Notes: generated by a model from the sequence alone, not told the origin. A stretch of 64,000 bases of DNA from Amphiscolops sp. MND2022 (GCA_964187785.1 OZ076409.1:14696001-14760000), one strand, 5' to 3'. Shown: positions 1 through 37,800, numbered from the stretch's first letter. Program-made: numbers and translations.

Positions 1-560
1 CCGGACCACCAAATCATTGTCCCCGTCCTAGCAGAAAGGGACCTCGGGACAATCCAGGGCACAGTGGAAACCTTTCCTGCCTTTGAAAGGAAGACACAAT
101 TACTGGTGTCCCCCGCCCTAACGCAAATCACTGAGAAGAAAAGCCATGTCCAGATCACCAACCTCACCTGCCATACAATTACCCTCAACCCGAACACGAC
201 AGTGGCCACCTTCAAAATAATGACTCCCAATCAAGCAAAAAACCTACAACCAATGTCAAACGAACAATTGACACTAATAACCAAATACCCGGACGAAGCC
301 AACAACGTACTGAACCAGCTGTTCCAGGAACCCGGCACTGAAACCAACCGCAGATGGTACCCAACCCCGGAGACATGTGACGACCCGTCCAAGCTGAACC
401 GCATTGAAAGGCGGATATATGACGAAATCACTCAACTCCGTGAAAAGAGAAACTGGACCCAACAGCAGACGACCAACAGCGCAAGGAGTTCCTTGCTAAC
501 TTCAAATGGGAAAACTCAATCCTGAATGAACACGAACAACAACAAATTGAGAACCTCCTT
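1..560 (+). CDS. pol: Upstream part of the Gypsy polyprotein (PR-RT spacer), joined to pol by a 1-nt frameshift near 442-448
   Basis: ORF 64-525 reads ...IYDEITQLREK; the -1 frame then continues without stops as EKLDPTADDQQRKEFLANFKWENSILNEHEQQQIENLLVKYNNVF into ORF 561-4031. Confidence 0.75.
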
Positions 561-3500
561 GTGAAGTACAACAATGTATTCGCCAGACACCGCCTCGACA
601 TAGGCATCAATACTGACTTCAAAATCAAACTCACTCCGAAGCATGATGAACCAGTCTACGCGCAGAGCTTACCTACACCCACCAACCTCAAAGATGACTT
701 GCTCGTCGAACTAGCGTTGATGCAAGAGTACGGGATCATCACGACGTTACCGTACAGCAAGTATTCCTCACCAATATTTGCTCAGCGCAAACCCAATGGG
801 AAACTTCGCATTCTTGTAGACCTGCGCAGAATCAACCACCTCTTGAAAAATGATTACAACCAACATAATCATTTAGTCACCACCATCGCCGACGCCGCCC
901 AGCACATGGCAGGGAAGAAGTACTTCTGCAAGCTGGACTGCTCGCAGGCGTACCACTGTTTGCAGATGGCGGATGAACAATCCATACAACTCTTGGCATT
1001 TAATTTTGGAAGTCGAACCTTTGCTTATCTACGACTGGCACAAGGACTCAACCGATCCCTATCAGCATTCAACAGCACGGTGCGAGAATACGTTGATGCA
1101 CTGGTGAAAGCGGATAAATGTGCCCAATATGTCGACGACATTGGGATTGCTGCCCACACTGTAGATGAGCTACTGTCAAACATTGAAGCTGTGTTCCAAC
1201 AAATCCAAAAAGCAGGACTGAAATTGTCGATGTCAAAATGTGCGTTTGGCCACCCACAGATCAATTTCCTCGGGAGAAACATCACATCAAAGGGTGTCGC
1301 CCCACTTGAAGACAAGATCGACGACTTCCTCAAGAAGATCAAATTGCCCACAACAATCAAATCCCTCCAAAGGTACATCGGGTTTGTCCAGTTCTACAGG
1401 CAGTACATACCACGCCTAGCAGAACAACTCACCCCACTGTACAAACTACTCCAAAAAGACGCCAAATTCCAGTTGACCCAGCAGCACAAGGACTTCATCT
1501 TCGAGATCAACGAAAATCTTGCCAAAGCTGCGAAACTTTCGCTGCGTCTGCCGTTACCCGATAAACAGCTTGTTATAATGTGCGACGCCAGCGAGCATGC
1601 GGCAGGATATGTCCTCCTGATAGAGGACTATACCGAAACAAACGATGGACCACTGAAGACGTACGCCCCAGTATCATTTGGATCCCAACGATTCACGGAG
1701 GGCCAAATGTCCCTAACAATGTACGCAAAGGAATTCCTGGCGATGCATTTCGCATTCGACGAATTCGCACACATACTCTGGGGTGTCAAGAAACCAACAA
1801 TAGTAATGACGGACAATAAAGCACTGACCCGATTTTTTCAGTCTAAACGAATTCCCCCGAAGCTATGGAATTACTGCGATCAGACGCTCCAATTCGAATT
1901 CGTACTTGCCCACGTTCCGGGAACTGAGAACCCTGCTGCAGACTACCTGTCTCGTCTTGACATACGACCAGAAGAAAGAATACACCTCAAACTCAACGAC
2001 GAGATACCAGTCTTCCACGTCTTGATCGACCTGGCATCGAGAACACCCAAGCAGGACGAAGAAGAAGAAGAAGAATACATACCTGATGACCAACACACTA
2101 CCACCACCAAACAAAATGAAGCCATCAACGCCATCCTGGACCAGGTCCCCATGTGCAGCAACGAATCGAGTGGACAGTTTCTCGAGAGGATAGAAACCAT
2201 CCGTCATCAAATCACACCCATCATCACAGGGCAACATGACGAGATGACGTTCACCAGATTCAGACGAAAGCTTCATGACAACGTGGTAAACCAGGTATGC
2301 CCCAACGGGGAGTTTCAAATCATCCAGGATCAAGTCGTAAACCTTGACATCCAACGCATGATTAGAGTTTTGAACCAAAAGGAAACCCTTCCTAATCATG
2401 TGAACTTTGAAAGTCAGTTTTTCCAAAAACTAGTTAAAAACAAGAAAAGACTTGAAGTTGTGAACAACGTTTTATACAGGAATTTTTTTGATGGTACAGG
2501 TAAAATCAAGTGTAAACAAGTTGTCACTACCCCTGAAACCATTCGGAAAATCATTCAATCCCTGCACAATGACCCTCTGCAAGGTCACCCTGGCTGTAAC
2601 AAACTGCTCCATGAACTGCGTAAAAGGTACTACTCACCAAACCTCTCTGAACTGGTACTGCAATACGTCTCGAACTGCCAGGACTGCATCCGCTCAAAAC
2701 CAATCCGAAAAGCTGAAATCACACCACCACTTCAACAAATATACGACCCCTGCAACGGACCAGAAGACATACTAGAAATTGATTTAGTCGGTGAACTCCC
2801 ACCTTCCAACGGATTCACACACATCCTCACTGCATGCGACTACTTTTCGAGGTACCTCTTCGCAATACCAATCCGTAAACCAGACACAAAGTCGGTCGTG
2901 GAAGCACTCATGCAAATCTTTACGCAACACTCGTATGTACCCAAGACAATCTTAACTGATAAGGGAACGACATTCACATCTCAACTGCTCAACTCCCTGA
3001 TGGAGTCTGCCGGTATAAAAATCGAACATGCCTCTGTAAAACACGCACAAACGATTGGGATGGTTGAACGTTCCCATCAAAAACTGAAACAAATTCTCAA
3101 AATCAACAGCTCAGCTGATTCACCACAATGGCACAAATACGTCAACATGGCCGTAATGGCCCATAACACGACCTACCACCAGGCTATCCGATGCACACCC
3201 ACTGAAGTTTTCCACGGACGTGTTCCGTTCAATGCCCTTGACGTCAAATTTGGCCATCCATTAACCGAACAACGTAACACCACTGACGTCACTGGAATAC
3301 TAGATAACATGAACAAACAATTCCAACAAACACATGACAACATAATCGAAGCCTTTCACAAATACAAGAATTACTACGACCGAAAAGCGCAAGCTTCACC
3401 TCTGAAAGTAAATGATTTCACCTTTCTGCTAAACAAAAAACTGTCTCAGCAATCTGAAAAAATTCCATTCAAGGAATTCAAGTGGGAAGGCCCATACAAA

Positions 3501-4031
3501 GTGGTCAAAGTCTTGTCAAATTCAAATTACATCATACGTAAGATTGGCACTCTTCGCACCCAATGCGTTCACAGAATGAGGCTTCGCCCATTCACGCCAA
3601 ACGCACCAATCGAAGACATTCAAGACAATGCATCACAATATTTCGAAGATCCTGACGCTCTCAACGAACAGGAGTTATTTGACAATAACCTACCCGACCA
3701 TGTCCATGAACAGCCACAACAAGTAATACCTGAACAATCAAACTTCAATCATGGAATGATCTACTACGAACGGCAAAACATTGAATCTGATCAAAACATA
3801 TCCATACCTGAAAGCCAAGCTGAAACACAAGAACCACAACCGGATAATGCTAGCATGAACAATCCCGAACACCAAACAAATGATCGCCCTCCAGCGCCAT
3901 CACGACACACCATGTCTCGATACGGGCTCAGACACAACCCAAAACCTACCACGTACCCTGATTTCTTAATGCACGAATTACACGGTACGCCTTCACTGCA
4001 ACAGTTACTTCTGAAAAACAGAAACCTGTAA
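561..4031 (+). CDS. pol: Gypsy Pol: reverse transcriptase, RNase H, integrase with GPY/F module
   Basis: RT LRILVDLRRIN, KLDCSQAYH, QGL, YVDD; RNase H MCDAS, YAKEFLA, TDNKAL, ADYLSR; IN HHCC (H..QGHPG...CQDC), EIDLVG, TDKG, GMVER; WEGPYKV...VHRMRLRPF. Confidence 0.95.
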   Translation: MKYNNVFARHRLDIGINTDFKIKLTPKHDEPVYAQSLPTPTNLKDDLLVELALMQEYGIITTLPYSKYSSPIFAQRKPNGKLRILVDLRRINHLLKNDYNQHNHLVTTIADAAQHMAGKKYFCKLDCSQAYHCLQMADEQSIQLLAFNFGSRTFAYLRLAQGLNRSLSAFNSTVREYVDALVKADKCAQYVDDIGIAAHTVDELLSNIEAVFQQIQKAGLKLSMSKCAFGHPQINFLGRNITSKGVAPLEDKIDDFLKKIKLPTTIKSLQRYIGFVQFYRQYIPRLAEQLTPLYKLLQKDAKFQLTQQHKDFIFEINENLAKAAKLSLRLPLPDKQLVIMCDASEHAAGYVLLIEDYTETNDGPLKTYAPVSFGSQRFTEGQMSLTMYAKEFLAMHFAFDEFAHILWGVKKPTIVMTDNKALTRFFQSKRIPPKLWNYCDQTLQFEFVLAHVPGTENPAADYLSRLDIRPEERIHLKLNDEIPVFHVLIDLASRTPKQDEEEEEEYIPDDQHTTTTKQNEAINAILDQVPMCSNESSGQFLERIETIRHQITPIITGQHDEMTFTRFRRKLHDNVVNQVCPNGEFQIIQDQVVNLDIQRMIRVLNQKETLPNHVNFESQFFQKLVKNKKRLEVVNNVLYRNFFDGTGKIKCKQVVTTPETIRKIIQSLHNDPLQGHPGCNKLLHELRKRYYSPNLSELVLQYVSNCQDCIRSKPIRKAEITPPLQQIYDPCNGPEDILEIDLVGELPPSNGFTHILTACDYFSRYLFAIPIRKPDTKSVVEALMQIFTQHSYVPKTILTDKGTTFTSQLLNSLMESAGIKIEHASVKHAQTIGMVERSHQKLKQILKINSSADSPQWHKYVNMAVMAHNTTYHQAIRCTPTEVFHGRVPFNALDVKFGHPLTEQRNTTDVTGILDNMNKQFQQTHDNIIEAFHKYKNYYDRKAQASPLKVNDFTFLLNKKLSQQSEKIPFKEFKWEGPYKVVKVLSNSNYIIRKIGTLRTQCVHRMRLRPFTPNAPIEDIQDNASQYFEDPDALNEQELFDNNLPDHVHEQPQQVIPEQSNFNHGMIYYERQNIESDQNISIPESQAETQEPQPDNASMNNPEHQTNDRPPAPSRHTMSRYGLRHNPKPTTYPDFLMHELHGTPSLQQLLLKNRNL

Positions 4032-5855
4032 AACACCCATCCCTCATTGCATTTCTCAAACCAACGACTGCCAACAGTAGTCATAAACAGTCTCACTCCT
4101 TGACCGTAAAAGTAATTGTTTTACAATTACGCCCCTGTATACCAGTAATCAACAAGCAGTATTGAAAATTCCGGACAACCTAGTACACAATCCAATTAAT
4201 ACGATTAGATGACCATCCACTTCCGCCAACCCTGTTTGAACTGTCTAATTACTTAGCATCAACTACTACGTAAGAAGCAAACGAACGGTAAGGCCACGAC
4301 TGCAAACGCCAATCATCCCAACACTCGCGGCCCGGAAGCACACGTAGCGCGCAAAAGTGTGAACGATAATTTATTCAATTCGCACCAAAACTACCACATC
4401 AACAATCGAAACGAAACACTTCGCTTAGAAAACCGTCGAAACACAACTAACGAAACGTGAACGGAAACAACGTTCCCTACAAGCGCAAACAAACTAACAG
4501 TGGCGATCTGCTGCCTGGCAAACGTTAGGACAACACAACCAACATTCCACCCATTTCGACTTAAACCCATAGTGCTGGCTGTGTGGGTGCGTCGTCGAAA
4601 AGCGCGCTTGTGTGGTTGGTCGTCACCATACAGATGAAGGTTGCTCTTTAGCAACTGGATTCAGTGTTAGTTTTGTATAGGTGGTTCCGACGGGAATTCA
4701 CCTTTTCCAATGAACTGAACATCAAAAACAAAAATAAAAAAAACCAACCATAGACGATAACACAACGCCGGTAAGAACAAGAACTTACAAAATTCAGAAA
4801 ACAATGAATGCCCGACCCCTTAAAAGTAACCAGATATGCGAAGGCTTCGCCTCGCTTGGGAAAAGATTCAGGAGTACGCGGCCCCAACCTCTGCTTAGTA
4901 TTAAAATCCACACACACCCATAGTTCTCAGTCTAACAACTTCCTACCACCGAAGTTAACATAATGTAAGAACTCGCGATCTTGACGACACACATCACGTA
5001 TGATGACGTCCCAGGACACACATCAACGATGATGACGTCGCGTACACAGACCGCTACATGTAATATATTGAAACACACTAAAATACATGCAAAAATGTCC
5101 CTAAGACTTATAACATGAATATTACATGCACAAAAAAAAGTCATGCATCAAACCAAGGATACACTCCTTGAGCTCTCCTTCATCGAAAGGAACTAGCTAC
5201 TCAGTCACGTACCTTACAGTGCGGCGCTAAGGACTGGAAGGCCAAGGTCTGAATGTCTCGTTACCATTCTCGAGCCCTCACTAACAACTTACATGAAAAA
5301 CCTGGCTCTCGAGTACCATGCAGAGCACAGTTTGACGAGTGAACAATTGTTTATGTTAATGGTTACCGCAGTGACAACCATAACCAACATGAACTTCCTC
5401 AAAAAATTCTCTGTAGACGCCGTAACAATTAGAGCGTAAGTCCACTCGAAACCATAGCGAAGTATGGGTTACCACATACACACACTTAAGAAAGACAAAG
5501 CCAGTCCAGCATCATGCATAAACGTACATACAAACAACAAAAAAAAGCAAGCATAAGAGCAATGCAACTTTAGGTTTCACGTCCTACAAAAAAAATGGAG
5601 TTGTCACACGCAAAACAAGCGAAAAACCTCTTGTGACGTTCTAACTGTCCAGCAGTCCTAAGGAAAAACAAAGAAGAGTACTATGATGGTTGAAACCATC
5701 TATTTAAATTACTAGAAAGTGCAAGACCTACTCAGGCCAAAATAAAATGCAGCATACAAAGCAAATCACAATATCAAGACTCAATATATAAACAAAAAGC
5801 TGAGAACACAAAGAAATATGGAAAGTCTGATTACTAAAACAAGTCCTTCTGCCAA

Positions 5856-6824
5856 CTAATACTCTGTAGAACGGCTGGAACCGCCCTCGTTACTGCTTTT
5901 TTCTAGTGAAAAAGCCCGCCTGCTGGCTTGTACAGGTTCAGTCTCAAAGGTAGCCAGAATGCGTTTCCCTTTCTTGTCCGGCTTCCCACAGGGCCTCTGT
6001 CCGTGATTGCCCCCTGACGTCCTACTGACTGCTTTGCGCTTCGGAGCTGACTCACTCGGACCTGCCGATGTGACCACGACCTCGGATTGCAATTTCGGCG
6101 CTTGAGCTGCTGAACGCCTTGACTTGACAGGACTCCGACGGGGAGCAGTTGGACTCGATTCCATTGTCCGCAACTGATTACAAACAGCAGACACATAATC
6201 GTCAATGACAGGGCGAGTAGGTAGTCCGCCAGTCGTCTCCAGTACAGTGACACAGCGCCCAAGTGATTCGTCAACCCCCCTCTTAACCAATTGGTCCCAG
6301 GGGATAGCTCTGCCTTCATTGGTTAACCGCGAAACCTTCATGTCTGTAGTGCTGCAGTGTCTAACAAAACCAATCATCGAGCGTCGAGAATGCCCGCCGA
6401 AACCACTCGACATCCAGCTTCGAATAAGGTTCAAACTTGACAGCATGATACCGTCATCGAGGGCTGTGTCTCCTACATCCTGAAAATCAGCAGCATACGA
6501 ATCATGGAGCATTCCCACAAAAAGAATCTCCACAATGCCCCAGAATTCTTGGCACCGGTCCCACGAAGGATATGACAGCCACAAAGACATGGCATCGTCA
6601 ATAACTGGCACCACCGAAGCATTGGACTCCCATCGATGCTTGAAGTAGTTGACTACCTCGCGATACTGCTGTAAGATGATGGCACCTTGGTCTCCTCTGC
6701 ATAGATCTCCAAAGCTGAGGACAGAAAGCGTACCCACAAGGATGTCCGTCAGCCGATCCATTGACACCGACTGAATAGCATAAGGATCCAGCGGCAACAA
6801 GCTGAGGTGCTTAACCCACCCTTG
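5856..6824 (-). CDS. Antisense cargo gene exon 7, 3' part to the stop codon
   Basis: In frame with 7379-7689 once the MITE and one TSD copy are removed (IGDYD|QGWVKHL); ends in a basic, Ser-rich tail ...RSTEY*. Confidence 0.78.
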   Translation of the reverse strand, partial: QGWVKHLSLLPLDPYAIQSVSMDRLTDILVGTLSVLSFGDLCRGDQGAIILQQYREVVNYFKHRWESNASVVPVIDDAMSLWLSYPSWDRCQEFWGIVEILFVGMLHDSYAADFQDVGDTALDDGIMLSSLNLIRSWMSSGFGGHSRRSMIGFVRHCSTTDMKVSRLTNEGRAIPWDQLVKRGVDESLGRCVTVLETTGGLPTRPVIDDYVSAVCNQLRTMESSPTAPRRSPVKSRRSAAQAPKLQSEVVVTSAGPSESAPKRKAVSRTSGGNHGQRPCGKPDKKGKRILATFETEPVQASRRAFSLEKSSNEGGSSRSTEY

Positions 6825-6832
6825 GTCATAAT

Positions 6833-7378
6833 TAGGGGGAACCAAATGCTATAAATGCTATTAATGCTATAAATGCTATTTTCTCTTACATTTTGAACTT
6901 AATTGCTATTTTGTCTGTCGCCTGAAAACCAATATTATTTCACACGATAAATAAACATACACTTACTTACTACTTATTTTGTTGGACACCTTGAATGCAT
7001 AAAGCAAATAAATATAACACGCCTACTCATCTTTGTTGTATTTTAAGATCAACTATGCCTAAAATACCGCTTACTAAGCATGAGAAATCTTCAATTTATG
7101 CTCAAAAATATCCATCGGAATTCCGTGTTTTACCAAACGGAGAATTAATTTGTAAATTATGCGACAAGCCCGTTAACTCGGACAAAAATTGGCTTTGTTA
7201 ATTCATCTGAATAATTAACAATATGCATCCAAGTAATTGTTTTTTCAATAGTTTTTGGGCGAGTAAAATACAAAAAAATCAATTTTAAGTGCTATTTTTA
7301 GTGCTATTTTAAAGTTTTTTGAGTGCTATTTAATAGCGCTATAAAAACGTTTGTTAGTGCTATTGTTGGTCCCCCCTA
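6833..7378 (+). mobile_element. Non-autonomous hAT element (deletion derivative) retaining a transposase N-terminal stub
   Basis: TIRs TAGGGGGAACCAA / TTGGTCCCCCCTA; 8-bp TSD GTCATAAT (6825-6832, 7379-7386); subterminal TGCTAT repeats; stub MPKIPLTKHEK...ELICKLCDKPV. Confidence 0.92.
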
Positions 7379-7689
7379 GTCATAATCGCCAATACAAGAC
7401 TCGCACACAGTCCTGAGGAAATTCTCCACTTCTTTATAAAAGAAAGGCTTCTGGCTGACCACGTCGAAGCGGAAATACTGGCCGAACAGCACTTGAAATC
7501 GGGCCTTGTCAACAGGCTTACTTTCGCCCAGTCGCAACTTCAACACGGCGAGGACTTCAAAATCAGGTGGTAACGATGAGGGTTCGACGACCAGACACAA
7601 TAACTCTCGAAGGAAAGCAGCCAACTCCCGCTCGAACCACAAGTTCCGATCTCGCCCAGCAGAACACAAGCGAGGACACTTTGCAACAA
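7379..7689 (-). CDS. Antisense cargo gene exon 7, 5' part (interrupted by the hAT MITE)
   Basis: Acceptor GTGTTTCAG|, phase 1; reads VVAKCPRLC...CESCIGDYD up to the MITE TSD. Confidence 0.75.
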
Positions 7690-7837
7690 CTGAAACACAC
7701 AGGCGAATCACAAACAAAATGTCGAAAAACTACACACCCTAACAACTCAGACGTAGATAACACCCAAATCAACAATTACAACAAAACTAGTACCGACACA
7801 CCCGTACACAAGAAACACTCAAAACTCTTATACTGAC

Positions 7838-8048
7838 CTGTCTCTGCCAGAAATTTCAAAACTGCAAATCGCGGCCTCGACAAAGCATCGCTGAAGACTT
7901 GAGTCTCCATACTGGCTATACTCCGCGTTTCGGACACAGTATTTGACCGGTGAACACCGAAGTAGGCACCGAGGTCGTCCCATCGCTCCACAAGTTCGGT
8001 GCACAGTGCCGACAACTCCTGGAAGCGCGCAGCACCACCACGGACGAA
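7838..8048 (-). CDS. Antisense cargo gene exon 6 (hAT RW-helix-like segment)
   Basis: Acceptor TTGTTTTAG|TTC, donor G|GTCAGT; RFQELSALCTELVERWDDLGAYF. Confidence 0.78.
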
Positions 8049-8167
8049 CTAAAACAAAATTAGCACCGGGTTAGAACAAAGCAGACCACGACCACACATT
8101 ACCACACATACTCACACCAGTCCCCGAAAAAAGAAAAAAATGCGCTAACAAACTTAAAATCAATTAC

Positions 8168-8656
8168 CTCTCGAAGCCTTGGCATATTGTCAAACGACGA
8201 ACCACCGATGACGGCGGCTAAGCGGAACCGGAAATACTCCAACACGCAGAAAGGTTCCAGTCCACTCAACTCTCGCAGAAACGTGCGCCGCAGCAAATCC
8301 TTCAGCCAGTCCACATCGAGACGACGAGTAACCAAAGGTATGGCTGGGTGCGCGATGCTAGCTAACGCACGCCCAAGACGCAGATTCTCTCCCACACTCA
8401 CAGCACACAGACCCGCATGAGACTCCACACAGGCCAGAACAGAGACAACGATCTTGAGTAGTGAGGGTTCCCACTCACCACCCCCAGGAATAGCAGCTAG
8501 CACAACCATCTTGACTGTCAGAGCGTCAAAAATGTGGCAATCCACCCGCTTCAACGAACCATCAGTGCGGACGTGCAGACCAAACCGCGCCCCAGCAGAG
8601 AGTAGATCGCTCAGTTTCTCCATAACAAATGGATACAGGCCGTACAACACAAGACT
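8168..8656 (-). CDS. Antisense cargo gene exon 5
   Basis: Acceptor TTGTTGTAG|AGT, donor GAG|GTAATT, phase 0/0; same frame as ORF 8099-8650. Confidence 0.78.
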
Positions 8657-8788
8657 CTACAACAAACATACAACAGTGACACTTCTCAGCAAGTACTGCA
8701 AACGAAAACAGTAAGCAACTACAAACACGAACTAGCAGACAAGAACCAATATTCACGAACAAAAAAAGATGAACAAAACATGTATTAC

Positions 8789-9351
8789 TTGACATTTCGG
8801 GTATGATAGCACCCTCTCACTGAAAACCAGCTCGCCCCGCATGCTACTGGACCACACTTCCATGGACCGCATAACGCTTGAAAAGTCCCTCAGTTCAACA
8901 AAGTTATTGATGAAGCAGCATAGCCAGAGGTATGAAGCACTGGACTCCGACAACTCGGGTTTCGAACCAGCTGCCTCCTCTTCTAATTCAACCGCAATCC
9001 GCTCTTCAACAGTCAGCTTCACCTCTGACTCCAGAATGACAGGTGGCTCTGACACTCTGGCTGCCCGAATTCTCCGATCCTCGTCCAATGACACGGGCCT
9101 ACAGGACTTGTCCAATAGAGGCCTATTGGACATGATGCGGAAGCGCTGCTCAAGACGAGTGTGCTCTCGCCCTTTCCAATGATCCCACAAGTTGTGTAGC
9201 CCACGTCCGGCAATGCTTAAATCAACGCGGCACAGACGACACCTTGCGAACCCGTCCAACACACGTTTGTTTCGGGGGAAACCAACGAAGGTCCCCACGA
9301 CCCCAGAAACGAAGAATGAGGGTTTCAACGTTTTGATAGCACGCTTCCGTC
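8789..9351 (-). CDS. Antisense cargo gene exon 4, BED-like C2H2 zinc finger
   Basis: Acceptor GTGTTAGCAG|, donor CAA|GTAATA; ARCRLCRVDLSIAGRGLHNLWDHWKGREH. Confidence 0.78.
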
Positions 9352-9511
9352 CTGCTAACACACAACACAAATCACATAGCACCACTGTCCAGCCAAAAAC
9401 TTCCAAAAAAAACGTGTTTGTTCTTAATCAGTAGTAGTACGTTATATACATCTCTTATTTCTTTACCACCTAAAACTAAAACCCCTCACGTGATCTTTTG
9501 AGAGTTCTTAC

Positions 9512-9880
9512 CAGGCTTTGATGTGGAGGCAACAGCAGACGAAGTCCCCCCAGAAGGAACGCCGCTTTTTTCTCCAAACTCAGACGGCACATCAGATTCC
9601 ACTGCCGCACGACGATCGTCCACACTAGAGATGCTCCCAGCTACGGAGCGTGGTAGAGAAGAAGTCTCACCACCACGGGGAACGACAGGAGCTTGACCCA
9701 GTTCTCGCAACGCTTCCTTCAATTTGTCCAGGAATTCCTCGACAGCGAGAGCACCCACTGTCCCTAGCCGGCCCAAACTAGACTCGATTGCAGCCTTCAC
9801 CCACTGCTGAATTTCCCGTTCCACACGATGAAACAATTCAGTGAATTGCCCCACAATGACATCAGCTCGAACGTTGGCAT
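9512..9880 (-). CDS. Antisense cargo gene exon 3 (helical segment plus Ser/Gly-rich linker)
   Basis: Acceptor TACTTTGCAG|, donor G|GTAAGA; same frame as ORF 9486-9854. Confidence 0.7.
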
Positions 9881-10059
9881 CTGCAAAGTAACCCTTAGTT
9901 CACAGCACCTACTTTGGACTCAACGACTGAAGGCATCTATCACCGCCTGGTTATAGAACAGCAACCGTATACTGCATGCATTGGTATCGAACAACAAAAG
10001 AACCAAAAGACCCCCCCCAGCAGATAACCTAGCTTCACAGTAACCGTGAATTCACCTAC

Positions 10060-10281
10060 CAAGTTGCGATGTCAGAAAGGCATCCAGTCGACGAAGGATG
10101 GTCGCCGCCTCCGTCTCAGAACCCTCAGCAGTCCCAGCGACTATCGAAGCACGAAAGCGACGTAAATAACTGACCACGTCGGACATGTTGACATCAGCTA
10201 CAAACACGAGAACGCCCTAATTAAAATGCTACGCCTGACACTCCCTAACATTACGGGACTCAAACTTGAAAGTATGCAAAC
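10060..10281 (-). CDS. Antisense cargo gene exon 2 (two in-frame TAG codons in this copy)
   Basis: Acceptor TTCTTTCAG|, donor G|GTAGGT; reads GLHTFKFESRNVRECQA*HFN*GVLVFVADVNMSDVVSYLRRFRASI...AFLTSQL; phase 1 at both ends. Confidence 0.5.
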
Positions 10282-10359
10282 CTGAAAGAAAGTCTAAACT
10301 CTCCCTTACGCTTTAGACATACCACTGATAGTAGTACAATATACGAAGTGAGCACTTAC

Positions 10360-10780
10360 CAAATTCCTGGGAGAGAACGACATCCAATAAATCGCCTGAA
10401 CCAGCGACATTAGCAGAAGATACACGAGCCGCAAACTGACAGCAGTAACTAGTCTCCAGCAAAAATCCTGATAACTCCAGATAGCCTCCACTTCCACCTA
10501 GCTGAGCCCCCTCTCCGGCCATCTGATTCTCCACTTCAGCGACTAACTCAGCTAATCCGGGACCAAAGGACTGACCTGCCTCATCATCAGACATATTGGA
10601 TAACGCTGGGAGCAAAGGAAAAAACTGATACTCTTCGGGGAAATAATAATCGGCGACGAAGACACGACTGCAAAAGCTCATTCTTCCATTTATTGTTGTT
10701 ATAGACTGATCACCTATTCCAATATACAATGGATACCTGACCTCCTTATCAAACAGTTTTACTCGAGTAAAACTGGACAT
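10360..10780 (-). CDS. Antisense cargo gene of the Gypsy element, exon 1 (MSSFTRVKLF...VVLSQEF)
   Basis: ATG at 10780; donor G|GTAAGT at 10359, phase 1. Confidence 0.6.
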
Positions 10781-11402
10781 TCAAGGAACTATATTTTGGA
10801 CCTACTTCCATCAAATATCAAATGCTAATTACAAGAAGCAGAAAGAAAGCGGTCGTATTTCCCTGCCAAAAAAGATTAATTCCCCTCACAACCTTATCAG
10901 TACATTCGATACCCGAAAAATACAGGACTAACAGTGAAAAAAAAACCAAACAAGGACATATTTTCATCATTGTGGAAGAATGAGCAAAGCCAACGGTTGA
11001 CAAACGAAGGTGAATACTCTCAAATTAAAGCGGGATCAACTTTCAATTCAAACAGTAACTGACTCAAGTGACTTTCACTATAGCAACTCAACAAATCAAT
11101 CAACTGCCGATGATCGATGAAAAGTTGCTTAAACAAACATTACACTCAATGCGCACTACACGGATGACGTGGCTGTCAAACCGTTTCTATAAATAGACTT
11201 CAACTTCCGACTACCTACTATTTGCCTGCCTCACCTTGTCCATTCACGCTTCCGAAAGTTTCCAGAAGCTACATTGCCACCCACGCGTTTCTCTATACCT
11301 TGCATGCCACTTCAGCCGCTGTTCAATACTCCACTCAAACACCTGCTACCTCTCAACTCGACCGCTCACCTTACCCATTACCCCTACAGCTTGCTCTCTC
11401 TC

Positions 11403-11416
11403 AAAAAGGGGGGGAA
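11403..11416 (+). other. Polypurine tract of the Gypsy element
   Basis: AAAAAGGGGGGGAA immediately before the TG that starts the LTR. Confidence 0.85.
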
Positions 11417-12541
11417 TGTCATGCCCGCCAAGCATGAAGGAATTAAACGAACTCTAAAACATTATTTTTATACATCAAACTCCCTAAAATACAGATCATC
11501 ATGAAAATACATTGCAGTAATTTATTCCCCGAACAACACAGTTGAAAGGATAACAACTGGAAGTAACAGTCATCAATACTGAATTCATTCATGTTATTGT
11601 GCATCGTTTAGAAATCAAGACTGAAATATTCAGTCACAACAAGTGATTCCCATAAATACGACTGAAACAATCAGTCATCAGCTATCGTGATAGTTTGTCA
11701 TTTAATCATTCTTCATCCATTTTTTATATTACATGTAAAGTATTACCAGAATATTCAATCAATCATAACAACAACATTTCGTTCATTCATATTAGCAATA
11801 TGTACAATGCCTTTTAGTAATTATCCTCCAAACGATATTTGAATCAGTCACCATGATGATAAGGATACACGGTAGTAAAGCCTCAGTTTAAGAGGTAATT
11901 GAGACAATTGCGTGCTAAAATGACTGGTGCTTGCGGTCATACTAGATCAAACATGAATACTTAAACGCCGATTATCACCCGTCACGACTGTAGCCACCAG
12001 TTGTCAAGTGCAATTAAATAGCAATTAGTAAATCGAATGTCATTGGCTAAATGGAAAGGTGCTAACACACCTTTATAGTTACACAATCGGGTAAAACCGA
12101 ACTCACTCACGAGTTGTAACCATTGATATAACCAGTTGCCTACTACCTTGCTTACGAGTTATCAATCCTTATTTTAACATTAAAACATTTCAATTCAACT
12201 TAAAACTTCCAGACTTTTCATGGTAATTACCAGATCTCAAAGTAGTCAAAATAGACAAGTAAAAACTGAAAATATGGATACATCAAGCGATAACGAAAGT
12301 GAAGCCAGTTTCCCTGAACTTTTATCCAGAGACCAAATGGTAGACCTTGACTCTGACGACGTTTTAACTAGACGTCAAAATGGTAACAGTTATAACATTG
12401 ACCAACGATTTAATGAGATAAATAGACAAATCGGAGACCTTACCAATATCGTCCTTACACTGACCAATCAGTTTGCCTCCGTTAATGGAGAAGGGAACAG
12501 ACTGAATCCAGCAACTACAAGTACTGACGGTCGTTCCGACA
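11417..12541 (+). repeat. 3' LTR (1125 bp)
   Basis: Starts TGTCATG after the PPT and ends CCGACA (TGTC/GACA terminal inverted repeat); followed by unrelated HINE-type repeat DNA. Confidence 0.8.
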
Positions 12542-12558
12542 ACTGGCACTTGAGATAG
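12220..12558 (+). CDS. LTR-encoded ORF, probably the Gag N-terminus (107 codons inside the LTR, reading out into the flank)
   Basis: MVITRSQ... acidic stretch then coiled-coil-like IDQRFNEINRQIGDLTNIVLTLT; open through the LTR end; same layout as the solo LTR at 42354-43782. Confidence 0.6.
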   Translation: MVITRSQSSQNRQVKTENMDTSSDNESEASFPELLSRDQMVDLDSDDVLTRRQNGNSYNIDQRFNEINRQIGDLTNIVLTLTNQFASVNGEGNRLNPATTSTDGRSDNWHLR

Positions 12559-14784: not shown

Positions 14785-15252
14785 CAAACGACAGAACTGG
14801 CGCGCGGGGACACTTTCGCATTTTTTAACATCCATTATTGCAAAACATAAAAAAATTCAAGGGGGGATCATTTGGTGGCAAAAAAATCGGGAAAAAGTCT
14901 CACAATGCCGAAAAGAACTGAAAGGGGGGACCTTTTGGGATTTTTCAACATCCATTTTGTCGCAAAACATCAAAAAATTGAAGGGGGGATCATTTGGTGG
15001 CAAAAAAATTGGGAAAAAGTCTCACAATGCCGGAAAAAGCTGAAAGGGGGACCCTTTAGTCTCTACCGGTATTATATGTTACGCGGAAAAAGAGGAAAAA
15101 CCTTTTTGGTTCAGTTCGCTACGCCAAATTATTCAATTTGGGACCATAAAATTTTGTAGAACTTTCAAGAACTATTTTGGTCAGTTCGTGTGGATTGAAA
15201 AAAAGAGTCACTATAATAGTCGCGTTTCACTTCATGAAGCGCCGACTAAAAA
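14785..15252 (-). mobile_element. Helentron-like non-autonomous element (HINE), partial
   Basis: Family end ATAGTCGCGTTTCACTTCATGAAGCGCCGACTAAAAA and internal AAAGGGGGACCCTTT subrepeats. Confidence 0.65.
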
Positions 15253-20801: not shown

Positions 20802-23089
20802 CAGGGCTGGCAGTTTTACTCGGAGCAAAACGGCGAATTACTCGGGGTAATACTCGGGCATTTAATGTTGTTTACTCGCTAAATTACTCGTTAAATACTC
20901 AGTGTTACTAGAAAAAAGTTATTTCAAAACCTTGTTGAATTTACATAAAGAAACAAAAGTTCACGAATTGAGTCATTGCTTAAAGTCTGGCGCTCATCAG
21001 TGAGGAGTTTATTGTAGTACGAAAAGACTCGCTCAACAGAAGCAGACGAAGGTAGCAAAAAACAATAAGTTTTTGCAATTGTTGCTAAATTTGGAAGTTC
21101 ATCACTGACCGACATCCAAAAATCCAAAACTTGTTGAATTTCGGCCTTCAGGCTTTCGAAAGTGTCTCCCGCGGGACTAGACACAAATGTTCTTGCTTTT
21201 GCACGGTAATGTAAAAATTCGGCCTCAGGTACTTTAGAAATTCCAGGAATCTTCAAAGATTTTGGTGTAACAGAGAAGGAAAGAGATTTGCTGGGAACTA
21301 GAAACTGGACATCTTTGAAATATTGCAAGCCAGGGAAGCAACCATTTTCGCCAAAGTATTTAAGATACTTCGACTCGGCAGAAAGAGCAGCTGTTGAAAT
21401 TTTGCGTATCAGTTCTAGTTGCTCGGAGCTGGTAAAAGTTTCTGTGATTTGATCCAAGATTTCCGTTAATGAATCTGCCAAGAGTTCTTTTTGAGAAACA
21501 ATTTCGAAAAACACATTTTCCAAGTAAGGAAGAGAAATACAACCCAGTGGTAAATCTGACTCAAACAACCTTATAGCATCAATAAAAGGTCGCGCTCGCG
21601 TACGAATAAATGTGCACTCCCACACAATAAATTTGTAATTGCTATCTAAAATTTGTTTCAGCTCCATGGCAGCCTCGTTTCCTTCATCCAAGTCGGTTTC
21701 CAACATTAGAAAGGATTTTTCGGCAGCTAGATAGTCAGTGTGATAATTAGCGACCGCATCAAACATTGCTGTCCATCTAGTGGCAATAGGAATTGGGGGC
21801 AGTTTCCGCTCGTAGCCGGATTGCTCTAGAAAAGTGAGATATCGTTGTTTCCGTGCACCTGAGTGACTGAAATATGCGGCAATTTTGGACGCCCAGTCAG
21901 TGGAAATAGAAAATGATTTCATAAACTCTTTAACTACTAAATTGAAAATATGGGCAATACAGGGCAGATGAAAACAATTTGGTAAAATTTCCTTCAAAGA
22001 GCGTTGGAATGAAGCAAGCATATACGATGCATTGTCTGTGCCGTAAGAAGCAACTTTGTCAAACGAAATTCCGTAATCTGACAGTACTGTTACAATTTGC
22101 TGCGCAACTTTACTCGAATTAACAGGTTCTTTATCGAGAAATACTTCTGCAAGGTACGGTTGTATTTCAGTATTATCTGGGGGTAAAAGTGCAAGCAAGA
22201 CGCAGGACACGTGACGGGATTGCGCGTCGAAAGTTTCGTCGTAAAAAATCATAACAGTTTTGCCCTTGCACTTTTGCTTCAACTTCTCACGGTCGCATTT
22301 ATAACAGTCGTTCAAATAGGGCTGTAATGCTTTTCGTCTGGGGATAGACCCCCCGGAAGTTATATGGCTCTGAAAAAAGTTTCGCATAATCAAATTGTCT
22401 GATACGTTCAAAGGAATATTGGATGCCACGCACGCTCTAATCCAAGACTGAACAGTGTCAATGTTTTGCAGCTTTGCAGCATTTTGTACTGCAAATGAAG
22501 TAGTAAGGGTCAATGGTCGCTTCCGGTTTGAGGAAGAAATGAGATTATTTTTATGTTTTTCAGAGTTTTGATGCCGTTTTATAACGCTTAAACTTTTATG
22601 ATCGATAGCTTTAACGCAAACGCGGCAGAATAGGACACCCTTATCTTCATAAAACTCATTACCCATTTTTTTGGCTCGCGTGAATGCAGTAACAGATGAT
22701 AAATGATTTTGTTTTGCCTTTTTTTGCGCCTTATTAATGAGTGATGTAACATTTGTTGATGTAACAGAATTCTCGTTGACAGAAGTAACAGAATCATCTG
22801 AGTCGGATGAATTCATCATTCGTAGGAAAGATTAAATTGTAGAGAAGTTAGTTATTTTAATTATTTCGTAATTTTCTAGAAAATTCTAGAATTGTTACTT
22901 CAAAATTTCCTTATTCCACCAATCAAATTGCTCAGATCTGCACAACTTCACAACGTCAAAACAATCTGATTCACTTTATAAATTCACTTTATTTGTTTAC
23001 ATGTACATGTATTACTCGCCACTGGTTAATATTGACTAATTACGCGGGAAAGACGCGAAATTACTCGCCGAGTAAAACTGCCAGCCCTG
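20802..23089 (-). mobile_element. Full-length, apparently autonomous hAT DNA transposon in the last CA10-like intron
   Basis: Perfect 22-bp TIRs CAGGGCTGGCAGTTTTACTCGG; perfect 8-bp TSD ATGATTAC (20794-20801, 23090-23097); subterminal TTACTCG repeats. Confidence 0.97.
20924..22819 (-). CDS. hAT transposase (CGGBP1-like N-terminal zinc finger), 631 aa, intact
   Basis: FCRVC...RHQNSEKH zinc finger; FYDETFD, GTDNASYM, PCIAH (CxxH), TRW, PSSASVERVFS (hAT DDE core and dimerisation motif). Confidence 0.95.
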   Translation of the reverse strand: MMNSSDSDDSVTSVNENSVTSTNVTSLINKAQKKAKQNHLSSVTAFTRAKKMGNEFYEDKGVLFCRVCVKAIDHKSLSVIKRHQNSEKHKNNLISSSNRKRPLTLTTSFAVQNAAKLQNIDTVQSWIRACVASNIPLNVSDNLIMRNFFQSHITSGGSIPRRKALQPYLNDCYKCDREKLKQKCKGKTVMIFYDETFDAQSRHVSCVLLALLPPDNTEIQPYLAEVFLDKEPVNSSKVAQQIVTVLSDYGISFDKVASYGTDNASYMLASFQRSLKEILPNCFHLPCIAHIFNLVVKEFMKSFSISTDWASKIAAYFSHSGARKQRYLTFLEQSGYERKLPPIPIATRWTAMFDAVANYHTDYLAAEKSFLMLETDLDEGNEAAMELKQILDSNYKFIVWECTFIRTRARPFIDAIRLFESDLPLGCISLPYLENVFFEIVSQKELLADSLTEILDQITETFTSSEQLELIRKISTAALSAESKYLKYFGENGCFPGLQYFKDVQFLVPSKSLSFSVTPKSLKIPGISKVPEAEFLHYRAKARTFVSSPAGDTFESLKAEIQQVLDFWMSVSDELPNLATIAKTYCFLLPSSASVERVFSYYNKLLTDERQTLSNDSIRELLFLYVNSTRF

Positions 23090-31679: not shown

Positions 31680-32053
31680 CATATATTTCGAGGCTACTAC
31701 ATCAAAAATCAAATACAAAGTACAGCAAATCTAACATCCAAAGAGGAAGAAAAACCACTGAATACCCTCAAATATTTAGAGACTAGTATAATGTCAAACC
31801 AAAAAACAAAAAGCATCATTGATTGAACAGCCATTCAGCATGAAAACCTGAAAATCTGAGTATTCCTTTAGATCTTATTTTCGTCCTAAAATTTTAGATA
31901 TTCGTTTTTTTGACTTATTCCTCCTTCTACTTTCATAGTCATGCCTGCAGGCCTTCCAATTAAAGAAACAGTGAATTCCAACGGGGAGCAGGAATAACGT
32001 TATTCGTTTAGACGTCATTACCGGAACACTTTTCAGATGTTATTCCTTTGGAC

Positions 32054-32372
32054 GTTATTCGCGCCCCTAGTTGTTCGCGCCCCTAGTTATTCGCCCCCTA
32101 GTTATTCGCGCCCCTAGTTATTTGCGCCCCTAGTTATTCGCGCCCCTAGTTATTCGCGCCCCTAGTTATTCGCGCCCCTAGTTGTTCGCGCCCCTAGTTA
32201 TTCGCGCCCCAAGTTATTCGCGCCCCAAGTTATTCGCGCCCCTAGTTATTCGCGCCCCTAGTTATTTGCGCCCCTAGTTATTCGCGCCCCTAGTTATTCG
32301 CGCCCCTAGTTATTCGCGCCCCTAGTTATTCGCGCCCCTAGTTATTCGCGCCCTTAGTTATTGGCGCCCCTA
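32054..32372. repeat. Minisatellite (TTATTCGCGCCCCTAG) x ~20
   Basis: Direct 16-bp tandem units with few substitutions and no unique spacers. Confidence 0.95.
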
Positions 32373-33517
32373 AATTTCATCTGAGACATGAGCAATAACT
32401 GAAAATCGTTCAATCGAATTTTTGACATGATATCCATCCTTGCAAGGACCATGACAAACCATGGTTATCTTGCCAAGATCTTGCCATGATCTTGGCAAGC
32501 GTTCCATGTATCATGATTAACCATGATCTTGACAAGGGTACCATGGTTAACCATGATTTAGCAAGATTAACCATGATCATGGCAAGCGATCCATGGTTTC
32601 GAACACTGGTATACATTGTAGCACAAAGGAGTAAATGGAGTTACTTTTTCAAACTAATCAACTTCTGAGTAGCCACTTAGCTTTTTGAACCATGAAATCA
32701 GTTTTTCAAGTCAAGCAAGAACAGAGAAACTCAATTGGATATGAATACAATAAAGTAGCTTTGTAGCATAGTTACCCAATATGAATAGCGAAGTATACGA
32801 TTACCGCTATAAGAAAAAATATACGCTAGTGACTTGAATTGGATTCTTTACTCGAGTTTTTTAACGTAGTGTTGTCTGCAAACATTTTTATTTGACTTTC
32901 ATCAGTACAATCAGCCAAATCATTGATGTAAAAAAGAAAGGAGATAGGTCCAGAAAAAGACATTTAGGTCACACGACTAGGTATTTTTCGTAGGCTAGAC
33001 CACTTTCATATACAAAAAATAGACCGATAATGATTGCTTAATTAGCTTTGTAAATATCGGGAAAAGGTTTTCAGACTCCAATATTTCTCAAATTGTTCAA
33101 TAACTTTCGATGATTCAGTTTGTCAAATGACTCTTTCGAATCAGTGGAACAATATTGACCTTTCATTTTCAGGTCAAAATGGCCCCTCGTAAATTCATTC
33201 ACTTCCTTAATATTATTAATATTTGACATTTTCGATATGAACATTTTCAAAAATGAGCGCAACAAAAAACTTTTTTCGCATGGAATATCAGCATTCTTCT
33301 ATTACCATTTTTTGTTCTTCATCATTGAATTAAGTATACTAATGGGCATTAAGAGTTTTCAGAATCTATCATTTCGCTTTTTTTCACAGAGGTATCACTT
33401 TGCCTGTTCTGAACGCCACAGGATGAGTTCGTTCTGGCATGCATTTGGCAAGCAAAGTTTCTATTTTCGCTGAACATAATTTCAAATTTTCATTTTTGAT
33501 TTCATCGTGTCCGTTAC

Positions 33518-34507: not shown

Positions 34508-34707
34508 NNNNNNNNNNNNNNNNNNNNNNNNNNNNNNNNNNNNNNNNNNNNNNNNNNNNNNNNNNNNNNNNNNNNNNNNNNNNNNNNNNNNNNNNNNNNN
34601 NNNNNNNNNNNNNNNNNNNNNNNNNNNNNNNNNNNNNNNNNNNNNNNNNNNNNNNNNNNNNNNNNNNNNNNNNNNNNNNNNNNNNNNNNNNNNNNNNNNN
34701 NNNNNNN
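34508..34707. other. Assembly gap (200 N)
   Basis: Run of N. Confidence 1.
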
Positions 34708-34828: not shown

Positions 34829-37800
34829 TTATTCGCTGATCCAGTTTTGCATTTCTTCGGGCGTCATTTCCAGTAAGTTTGGGATAGCTTCTAATTCCCG
34901 TCTAAGGTCTTCTGTTTTCGTTTCGCTTTTGTCATCTACCTCGCCTTCTGGTTGTTTTTCTACATTTTGCACCATTACATTTTGGCCGTACCAGTTTGGC
35001 ATTTTCTTTGTTCTTTGTCTCGATCTTGTGGTTGTGTCCATGTTTTTGGGTGTTGATGTTGTGGGTTTGTTCTCTTCTTTTTCGTTTTTGTTGTTTTGTT
35101 TATTTTCTGGCTCTGGTTCTTCTTCGTCTGATGATGTCTCCAGTATTTCAATGTTTTCTCTTTGTTTTTCGGGTAGTCCGGCTAGTGACCGGCGTGGTGT
35201 TGCCTGTTTTCTGGGTGATCTGTGTTCGCTTGTTGGTGTTGTCGCGGTGGCTTTTTGTTTGTTGGTTGGTGTGTTTTTCGTAGTTCTTTCGGCTTCCTTT
35301 AGTGCGGCAATTTTCCATTCGAGTGATTTGCTGTCTCCTCTTTGTCGTGTTGTTTTTGGGCTGTGTGTGATGTGCTCTTTCGTTTTTCTTTTGCGATATC
35401 TCGTTTTGAGATAATTTGTCTTCGTCGTTTGGAATCCATTGTAATTGTGTGGTCGCTTTCACTCACAATGCGTCCTTTTCTCTGTGTGAAGTGGCTTTCC
35501 AGCTTTGTGTTTTTTTGTTCTGTTCCTCATCAGAATTGTGGAGTCAGTGTCTTTTTGGAAGTCTTCTGGTGAGAGTTGTAGTGCGCTGTCGTTCTCTAAA
35601 CAGTGTTTTGGTTTTTCTAATAATATTTTTATGGTGTTTGGTTTTTGTCCAAACACGTTTTCGAATGGGCTGCTCCCATTGGTTGTCGCGGCGGTGCGTA
35701 GGGCGAATAGGAGGCGATTTAAACCGGCGTTCCCCTTTTCGGTAAGTATCGTCTTTTCTGCTCTGATGCGTTCGTTTATAGTGCGGTTTAGTCTTTCTAC
35801 TTTACCGTTTCCGCGGTGGTCTCTGATTGGACATTCGACGTGTGAAATGAAAAGATTTTTAAAGAATGTTTTGAATTTTTCGCCGCGAAATATTGTGGCG
35901 GGGTCTGTTCTAATTCTTTTTGGAATGCCATTTTGAGCGATATATTCGTTAAGGATTTCTGTTACTTTTTCTGCGGTAGGTCTATTTGCAAATGATGCAC
36001 TTGGCCATCCGGTTTTTTGGTCTATAGCGACTAGTAAGTATTGTTTATTTTTGGGCGCTATTTTATATGGTCTGGCGAAGTCTAAAGCTAATTCGTCGTT
36101 GAAAGCTTCCGCGGCGGTTAATTTTCCAAAATTTGATTGTGATTTTATTGTTTTTAAATTTTTACCTGAATCTTTGCACTGGTTGCATGTTTGCGCTAGC
36201 AGAACTATCTCTCGATGTATTTGCGGCCACCAGATGTCTGCTACGGCTTGTAGCATCGAGTCTCTTCCGGGGTGGCCCCAGTGGAGGCTTCTGAAGATGG
36301 GTCTTCGTAATTCTTCGGGTATGACTAGTCTCTCGTCGATGTATATGAAATTATTTTCGTCTAAGCAAAGTTCATTGAAGCGATTTTGCCATACCTTTGG
36401 GAGCTTTTTGAATTGTTTTTCGTCGTAATGTTGTAGTAATGTGATAACTTTTTGGAGAGTTTGGTCCGATTCGTAGGTTCCAGCGAGAATGTTTTCCCCG
36501 ATTCTTTGAATGCTTGATTTTAGAGGGGTATTTGAATTTTTGTCTATCAAGGCTAAAGTGATTGGCCTTTTCATTGGTGGTTTTATTGCGATGGCTTGTA
36601 GTTGTTGCTCTTCGCGTTCTCTTTCGGTCATTTTGACTGCTGTAGCGTAATTGTTTTCGTTGAGTGCGTTCTTAATTGTTTGTTTTAATCCGTTCGCGGC
36701 GTCGCTGCTGCTTTGTTCACCTTTTTGCTCCGCGGCGGAACTCTCGTTTCTGATTGGCTACCGTTCGCCGCGAATTGCGTTGCGATTCATCAGTAGATTT
36801 GTCTTCATTTCTGAAACAATATTAATTGTGAACCATTCATCCCATAATGTTTTTGCGTTTATTGAGCTTTCGTTATGAATAGTTGGGTTACGAGATAAGT
36901 AATCTGCTATGCCTAATGTCCTACCTGGTCCGTGTATGACTTCAAAATCAAAAGGTAAAAGTCGATCGACCCAACGTGTGAGTCTGCTGGAATACGTTTT
37001 GTTTCCTTTTTGTCCCTTTAGTATTGTGGACAGTGCTTTGTGGTCTGAAATTATTTTGAATGGTACTCCGTACACGTAGCTGCGGAAGTATTCTACGGAC
37101 CATACTATTGCTAGTAGTTCAAGCTCATTCATGGAATAATTTGATTCTAATTCAGTTAAAAATCTTGATGCGAATGATAGTCGTTGCCATTCGCCATTTT
37201 CTTCTTGCTGGAGTACAGCGCCTAATCCAGCTTTGCTGGCATCACAGATGATGCGTAATGGGCAATCACGTTTAAAATGATTTAGAATTGTTACAGTTTT
37301 CATTTTGTTATTGATTTGTTCGAAAGCTTTATCGTGTTCTTTGTTCCACTCCCAGTTTGTGTCCTTCTTTAATAATGTTCGGAATGGGTAGCAGATACTC
37401 GCCAAATTGGGGGTGAATTTGTTTAGCTGGTTTACGGCTCCCAAGTACGATCTTAATTGTTTTAGATTTGTGGGTTTTAGTCTGTCAGAGATGCCTTGTA
37501 CTTTACTGTTTATCGGTGCGACGCCTTCTTGAGATAGTTTATATCCAACCCATTCGATTTCGGTCGCGGCGAAGTTGCACTTTTCAAGTTTCAGATTGAC
37601 GTTTGCTTCGTCTAGTCTTTTTAGAACTTCTTCTACTTTTTGAATATGTTCCTCTTCTGTTCCGTGGGTGACAATTAAAATGTCGTCAATAAATGCCAAT
37701 GTATTTGAAATACCTGCGAGTGTTAGGTCCATTATTCTTTGGAACTCAGTTGGCATTGTTGTTAATCCATATAATCCAGTCACGAATCTGTACATCCCCG

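Follow-up and report, generated by a model that had tools for sequence, protein, structure and literature searches.

How can a gene with several introns be a regular component of an element that multiplies by reverse transcription? This question is raised by a stretch of 64,000 nt from the genome of Amphiscolops sp. MND2022 (GCA_964187785.1 OZ076409.1:14696001-14760000), hereafter called the window, with all coordinates counted from its start. An earlier note on this DNA had described a Gypsy retrotransposon that carries a multi-exon antisense gene between pol and the 3' long terminal repeat (LTR), and had taken this gene to be an accessory of the whole element family. Our analysis leads us to a similar view: very probably, the window holds one dead copy of an animal Ty3/Gypsy-type family, and this family and its sister subfamilies carry an antisense second gene as a fixed part. 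Located on the minus strand at 5856-10780, the gene sits between the stop codon of pol at 4031 and the polypurine tract (PPT) that begins at 11403. It comprises five or six GT-AG introns of 119-179 nt, and its predicted protein has 1012 amino acids (aa) if translation starts at the ATG at 10186, or 1156 aa if it starts at the ATG at 10780.

The gene recurs with the element throughout the genome. A nucleotide search of the genome with the gene region, in which 34 of 470 candidates were scored, returned at least 31 other places that match 3.4 kb in full, from the proximal part of exon 7 to exon 1, at 93-97% identity, and the remaining 1 kb of the gene lies directly beside these matches. Ten copies were fetched whole, nine of which are colinear from one end to the other (LTR, gag, pol, spacer, antisense gene, PPT, LTR), the tenth having lost gag-pol. 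The LTR pairs of the fetched copies are 96.0-99.6% identical, while the copies differ from one another by 2-5%; set against each other, these values imply that a good part of the divergence among copies predates insertion and took place in active lineages. The integrase as query gave 86 places at 92-100% aa identity, the best of 30,684 candidates, with sister subfamilies among them. At 85 of these 86 places, in this subfamily as well as in its sisters, a match to the last exon of the antisense gene is found 1.9-3.7 kb downstream on the opposite strand. As the earlier note had supposed, the gene is thus a property of the family, and it is no nested insertion. Many copies of the sister subfamilies have identical integrase scores and open frames of 1603-1619 aa, which points to a very recent amplification of these subfamilies in this genome. 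A search with the rve family (150 of 25,833 candidates scored) led to other element families; its places were compared with those of the gene by eye only, and we give it no weight. Within the window there is no second copy of the gene.

To define the exons, the window copy was aligned with 19 other copies. The earlier note had joined the scattered minus-strand frames through six introns into a single frame of 3555 nt. In the window copy, all six of these introns indeed begin with GT and end with AG, but the proposed acceptor of intron 1 (10283-10282) reads AA in 19 of the 19 other copies. Similarly, exons 3 to 8 of that frame (the split last exon being counted twice) are open, but the join has two in-frame stops in its exon 2 (10281-10060). 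A different acceptor, an AG at 10199-10198 that lies behind a pyrimidine tract, is kept in all 20 copies, as is the GT donor of exon 1 at 10359-10358. Intron 1 accordingly covers 10198-10359, and exon 2 is reduced to 138 nt (10060-10197), which results in an open frame of 3471 nt and 1156 aa. The length of 1184 aa given previously is wrong and follows from the wrong intron-1 acceptor. The intron phases of 1, 1, 1, 0, 0 and 1 are nevertheless correct, because the acceptor is shifted by 84 nt.

Continuing along the minus strand, exon 2 is followed by intron 2 (9881-10059), exon 3 (9512-9880, 369 nt), intron 3 (9352-9511), exon 4 (8789-9351, 563 nt), intron 4 (8657-8788), exon 5 (8168-8656, 489 nt, with phase 0 at both ends), intron 5 (8049-8167), exon 6 (7838-8048, 211 nt) and intron 6 (7690-7837), all of these introns being of the GT-AG type. 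The last exon consists of a proximal part at 7379-7689 and a distal part at 5856-6824, the latter encoding a helical C-terminal domain and a basic low-complexity tail, and ending with the stop codon at 5856-5858. The join between 7379 and 6824 that the earlier note had made is no splice; it skips a 546-bp insert with terminal inverted repeats (TIRs) and a target site duplication (TSD). Since this gap is a transposon insertion, the last exon is a single exon of 1280 nt in the family, and the two parts are contiguous in the other copies.

If the antisense frame encodes a protein that matters to the element, its codons should bear the mark of selection. Of the 20 aligned copies, ten have an open spliced frame from the ATG at 10186 and nine from the ATG at 10780, and 237 of the 240 splice dinucleotides are intact; splice sites and frames are thus conserved among copies, as would be expected from the proposal of a family-level gene. 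We then pooled pairwise comparisons into a descriptive ratio of nonsynonymous to synonymous differences (pN/pS). For exons 2-7 together this ratio is 0.22, in agreement with the earlier expectation of a dN/dS (the corresponding ratio of substitution rates) below 1, whereas the same exons give 1.06 and 1.86 when the frame is shifted by +1 and +2. The pol gene, analyzed in nine copies, has a ratio of 0.256; in other words, the antisense protein is conserved to a degree similar to the element's own protein. Exons 3-7 range from 0.12 to 0.39, with the lowest value in exon 4, the most conserved exon, followed by 0.13 in exon 5, 0.24 in exon 7, 0.33 in exon 6 and 0.39 in exon 3. With 11 copies, the ratio of the gene frame is 0.224; the one antisense frame that is also low (0.32) has its third codon positions in common with the gene frame. 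In addition, introns differ between copies by 3.4-5.2%, as against 2.2-2.8% for exons. Descriptive as these ratios are, the difference from the control frames and the agreement with pol are both clear.

At the 5' end the picture is different. Exon 1 of the earlier note (10360-10780, 421 nt) has a donor that is fully kept, but no coding constraint is seen in it, with a pN/pS of 0.93, and the corrected exon 2 has a similar value of 0.94. The frame of exon 1 is open in 16 of the 20 copies, which at such identity mostly reflects shared descent. The ATG at 10186, located inside exon 2 and kept in 19 of the 20 copies, offers an alternative start for the protein of 1012 aa. Translation may therefore start at 10186, exon 1 being untranslated or no exon at all, or else the first 186 residues may form a fast-evolving tail.

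Relatives of the gene extend well beyond the family. In a library of 1.84 billion proteins, the last exon has relatives in 134 representative clusters, down to 22% identity, all of which are unnamed single-exon open reading frames (ORFs) of at most 439 aa; longer annotated proteins were not found for this exon. For exon 4, 102 homologues were found at 52-97% identity. Six longer annotated proteins containing exon 4 were considered as well and set aside, as they are ORFs that read through an open intron and not spliced products. The majority of these relatives stem from this genome or one very close to it. One of them, P0004, is 41% identical to the last exon and occurs in this genome at 99% identity. 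Relatives of the P0004 type were scored at at least 96 places, from 912 candidates in the genome, and exon 4 has 2,735 candidate relatives there. At 70 of the 96 places with a diverged last exon (families at about 41% identity), a match to exon 4 lies upstream on the same strand at a median distance of 1.13 kb, which equals the spacing in the element studied here.

The intron positions are shared as well. ORFs of diverged families that read through introns 3 and 4 put the junctions at identical residues. Of 25 homologue ORFs that extend beyond the end of exon 4, 23 have Val (GTN) next, which is what a GT donor would produce. Homologues of exon 5 in diverged families have 34-37% identity, and ORFs that run past exon 5 likewise continue with Val (GTN). 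The first half of exon 3 is 34-56% conserved in these families. For a further relative, P0056, the scored places of this genome offer no match above 28% identity; it must therefore stem from another organism, and the family exists elsewhere too. Exon-4 relatives were absent from the metagenome contigs of JGI and from the contigs of IMG/VR. On this comparative evidence, the gene is older than the element family that carries it in the window. As an observation on the genome itself, three last exons of the P0004 type with identical scores are found 22.3 kb apart on one strand (G000 C3:56944811-56990774), which suggests that a segment containing such an element was duplicated in tandem.

What kind of protein does the gene encode? 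The predicted layout comprises a low-complexity N-terminus, a C2H2/BED-like finger, a mainly helical body of about 700 aa and a basic tail. The finger is encoded in exon 4, at approximately 9161-9241, and follows the pattern Cys-x2-Cys-x16-His-x5-His, in which Cys37, Cys40, His57 and His63 are invariant or nearly so among 26 sequences. It matches zf-BED below the threshold, with 14.9 bits against a cut-off of 20.6 (E 0.027). AlphaFold models the last exon as helices, followed by the basic low-complexity tail. Transposase_28 (PF04195) does not match any exon at E values up to 10. Structure comparisons gave no Foldseek match at E<=0.001, a best Z of 5.0 in a wide VIA-align search, which retrieved generic helical hairpins only, and low scores or nothing usable from the ESM Atlas. 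An origin from a hAT transposase, prompted by the weak BED match and a 'TDG' motif in exon 5, is not supported: an hhalign comparison of the last-exon family with the hAT transposase found in the window gives a probability of 0.2%, the Asp of the motif is not conserved in diverged families, there is no Pfam hAT match, and the models are too poor for a comparison of folds. The most likely function, though at clearly less than even odds, is that of a nuclear nucleic-acid-binding factor that would act in trans on the element's transcription, on the handling of its RNA or on its escape from silencing, an idea that homology does not support.

The element that hosts the gene is complete, at 15,628 bp, and most of it lies within the window. 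Its 3' LTR (11417-12541, 1125 bp, plus strand) is preceded directly by the PPT, a run of A and G (11403-11416, plus strand), and both features were confirmed, together with the pol stop at 4031. The matching 5' LTR that the earlier note had expected upstream was found 1963-3086 bases before the window start, in a search of 10 kb, and pairs with this pol. Both LTRs are in direct orientation, start with TG, end with CA and are 98.84% identical over 1125 nt. They are flanked by the TSD that had been predicted, ACTGG, found at 12542-12546 and as the identical five bases before the 5' LTR. Directly after the 5' LTR, the sequence TGG... provides a putative primer-binding site (PBS); 5' LTR, PBS and the start of gag are situated 2-3 kb upstream of the window. 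The assignment to an animal host also held, with 43 nuclear-receptor zf-C4 matches and no WRKY match; zf-C4 domains are animal-specific and WRKY domains plant-typical.

The part of gag-pol inside the window occupies 1-4031 on the plus strand, with the pol frame at 444-4031. In Pfam, this pol matches, in positions of pol itself, RVT_1 (114-278), RT_RNaseH (371-479), Integrase_H2C2 (696-752) and rve (771-863), plus an integrase C-terminal domain. The order of reverse transcriptase (RT), RNase H and integrase is that of Ty3/Gypsy elements, an intact copy agrees with it, and the presence of RT_RNaseH and Integrase_H2C2 likewise points to Gypsy. In other copies, both gag and pol have long open frames; in the intact copy, a gag frame of 523 aa overlaps a pol frame of 1615 aa by about 50 nt. 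This gag frame (L039 7315-8883, minus) matches DUF1759, a domain known from BEL/Pao elements, weakly at 26.7 bits against a cut-off of 25.4, and no protease domain was detected in the first 530 pol residues of the L039 copy.

The distance from pol to PPT, 7.4 kb, is unusually long. Besides the gene, it includes a spacer that separates the stop codons of pol and of the antisense gene (4032-5855), which is the least conserved internal part, with 89-97% identity between copies, and presumably holds the antisense 3' untranslated region (UTR). At the other end, the region upstream of the gene inside the element (10781-11402, minus strand) is a candidate for the antisense promoter and 5' UTR, and has a TATTTATA stretch near 11190.

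The insert in the last exon (6825-7378) is a non-autonomous DNA transposon of 546 bp at 6833-7378. It has TIRs of 12-13 nt and an 8-bp target duplication (first copy 7379-7386, second copy 6825-6832), features by which it appears hAT-like. It is absent from all other copies compared, and derives by deletion from a very young transposon family, for which at least 25 places were found at 99-100% identity. Those places match the ends of the insert (1-356 and 355-546) and have 0.3-1.5 kb of extra sequence between them; in one array on C5, the first part of the insert is repeated eight times at a spacing of 487 bp. The window also contains an apparently intact open frame of 635 aa (20927-22831, minus strand) with a hAT dimerisation domain and DUF659, a hAT transposase, and enzymes of this type may be what mobilizes the insert.

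Several further repeats were observed elsewhere in the window. A second, degraded Gypsy-type pol at 34832-39172 (minus strand), with RT, RNase H and integrase in several broken frames, adjoins a gap of 200 N (34508-34707) and is without a homologue of the antisense gene nearby in the window. Two direct repeats of about 675 bp (41683-42358 and 45768-46446), 93-100% identical and 4.09 kb apart, may be the LTR pair of a small element. A tandem array of about 25 copies of a 16-bp unit occupies 32031-32434, and pieces of 100-200 bp from a dispersed repeat family, 61-91% identical, are present at 14835-15205, 40200-41260 and 62004-62650, that is, at no fewer than three sites in the window.

A number of points weigh against our interpretation of the gene as a working component of the element. 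The copy in the window is defective in two respects: the insert in the last exon means that its antisense gene cannot make the protein, and it is without single bases near 369 and 444 when compared with other copies, which breaks the long gag-pol frame. Neither AATAAA nor ATTAAA occurs in the window copy over the 660 nt that follow the stop of its antisense gene. Two starts are possible at the 5' end of the gene: exons 1 and 2 show no codon constraint, and the ATG at 10780 reads ATT in four of the 20 copies, three of which are otherwise open. The pairs pooled for pN/pS are not independent, and the ratio is descriptive. For the diverged copies of the P0004 type, the comparison covers the coordinates of the gene. 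Regarding the protein, Pfam has no family above its cut-off, a sequence profile search of the PDB gave nothing beyond chance and hence no relative with a solved structure, and both AlphaFold models are of low confidence, with a pLDDT (predicted local distance difference test) of 57 for the last exon and 55 for exon 4. Finally, antisense promoter, splicing and translation are all things that we infer.

These points have to be weighed together with the other explanations that can be offered for the locus. The long distance between pol and PPT, and the fact that a real nested insert sits inside it, could suggest that the entire 5-kb region is foreign to the family, being a different mobile element or a piece of a gene that inserted in this single Gypsy copy. 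The region, however, is without terminal repeats or a duplication at its bounds, which only the 546-bp insert has, and it is present at the 31 or more other places described above. Because the region is colinear in nine of the ten whole copies and linked to pol across subfamilies, at 85 of the 86 integrase places, we consider a nested insertion excluded. Nearly as little can be said for the exact gene model of the earlier note, with seven exons, 1184 aa, a start at 10780 and an acceptor at 10282: GT and AG do stand at those positions in the window copy, but the acceptor reads AA in every other copy, and of the two in-frame stops in its exon 2 the first falls at aa 157 in 15 of the 20 copies. 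We regard this model as scarcely credible. It is also very unlikely that the conservation stems from the sense genomic RNA or from an antisense non-coding RNA, for instance as a source of double-stranded or small RNA. Such an origin would fit the missing codon-level constraint in exons 1-2, and antisense transcription as a regulator in itself is discussed for plant elements in PMC7264820. Against it, amino acids are spared in one frame only (0.22 versus 1.06 and 1.86), conservation of the protein sequence, with clear motifs, extends to relatives at 23-40% identity, and introns diverge faster than exons.

The least unlikely of the alternatives, improbable as we judge it, is that of a passenger: a host gene, or the BED-finger transposase of an old DNA transposon, would have been captured once and carried along without service to the element. 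The weak zf-BED match (E 0.027) could be read in this way, and PMC7264820 describes that retroelements can capture cellular sequences. A useless gene, however, would decay neutrally, whereas this one has a pN/pS that resembles that of pol (0.22 and 0.256), and it has been kept across subfamilies and diverged families. The hAT profile comparison, at 0.2%, and the lack of a transposase domain in Pfam searches argue against the transposase version in particular. A transposase or host origin in the distant past is possible.

We therefore return to the reading of the gene as a fixed second gene of the family, under which the question posed at the outset would have a simple answer. In the genomic RNA, the introns of the antisense gene read as CT...AC and, by the rules of splicing, could not be removed, and each reverse-transcribed copy would inherit the intact intron-exon structure. 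Once the DNA is integrated, the gene would be transcribed from its own promoter, which may lie within the 0.6 kb preceding the PPT or within the 3' LTR, and the antisense transcript would be spliced as an ordinary mRNA. The protein would help the element to multiply, and lineages that lose it would stop propagating; such losses may be the cause of the pol-like codon conservation that we observe. A wider version of this reading, to which we give a little less than an even chance, is that a whole clade of animal Gypsy elements has long co-evolved with an intron-bearing antisense gene for a zinc-finger nuclear factor needed to multiply. Such 'complex' retrotransposons with a second spliced unit would form numerous subfamilies, represented by hundreds to thousands of copies here and by relatives in one or more other organisms.

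How does this gene compare with known systems? The closest likeness is found in plants, where, in PMC7264820 and PMC11963269, antisense extra ORFs between pol and the 3' LTR of Ty3/Gypsy elements are described under the name aORF-3R, with maize Grande gene23, rice RIRE2 and Silene Retand, the last with a TRP28 domain, as examples. The plant ORFs agree with our gene in their position between pol and the 3' LTR, their antisense orientation, their presence in most copies of a family and the unusually long internal region that accommodates them. They differ from it in that the host here is an animal and the gene has five to six introns, whereas neither of the two papers speaks of introns. The protein encoded here is also far larger, at 1012-1156 aa, and without a match to Transposase_28 or any other Pfam family. 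Outside plants, PMC8365987 and PMC7264820 cite brtn, an antisense gene that Boty-like Ty3/Gypsy elements carry in Botrytis cinerea and Sclerotinia. This gene likewise is an extra antisense gene of a Gypsy family, but the elements are fungal, and we set it beside ours by citation.

Other retroelements offer partial parallels. HBZ of human T-cell leukemia virus type 1 (HTLV-1) is said, in PMC11963269, to be a minus-strand protein that is nuclear and regulates the virus. Being a minus-strand protein of a retroelement, it resembles the product predicted here, but HTLV-1 is an exogenous retrovirus, and HBZ is a small basic leucine zipper protein with one intron that is unrelated in sequence. The principal HBZ transcript begins in the 3' LTR and undergoes splicing. 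For TART, a telomeric non-LTR element of Drosophila, multiple sites of transcription start, polyadenylation and splicing have been mapped, according to PMC1636488. TART shares with our element that it is an animal retroelement with splice sites, and differs in being non-LTR. Its introns are reportedly in the antisense RNA, and we know of no claim of a conserved antisense protein for it. Lastly, CERV of the Caenorhabditis elegans Gypsy element Cer1 is described, in PMC10309623, as an accessory protein for the nuclear export of genomic RNA. It is comparable as an accessory protein of an animal Ty3/Gypsy element, but it has no separate antisense unit. Reportedly, its coding sequence lies on the sense strand and is expressed through splicing of the genomic RNA. 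In the open-access literature of PubMed Central (PMC) and bioRxiv, we found no animal precedent for a spliced antisense gene in a Gypsy element. What is new is thus probably the animal host kingdom and an unrelated, much larger gene with multiple introns; the architecture as such is already known, and its logic is probably the same.

Descriptions of extra antisense genes in LTR retrotransposons have so far come from plants and one group of fungi, and no function is known for these genes. The animal case presented here is a very clean one, with a large gene of five to six introns that is open in about half of 20 copies, has a codon conservation like that of pol and is kept across subfamilies. 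The natural series of homologues, from 23% to 99% identity, should be useful for working out the role of such proteins. For genome annotation, it follows that such loci will be predicted in their hundreds as host genes without a known function. For the family itself, the finding would mean that a spliced gene stays intact over many rounds of reverse transcription owing to selection on the element rather than on the host, and that antisense orientation may be a general way for retroelements to carry introns.

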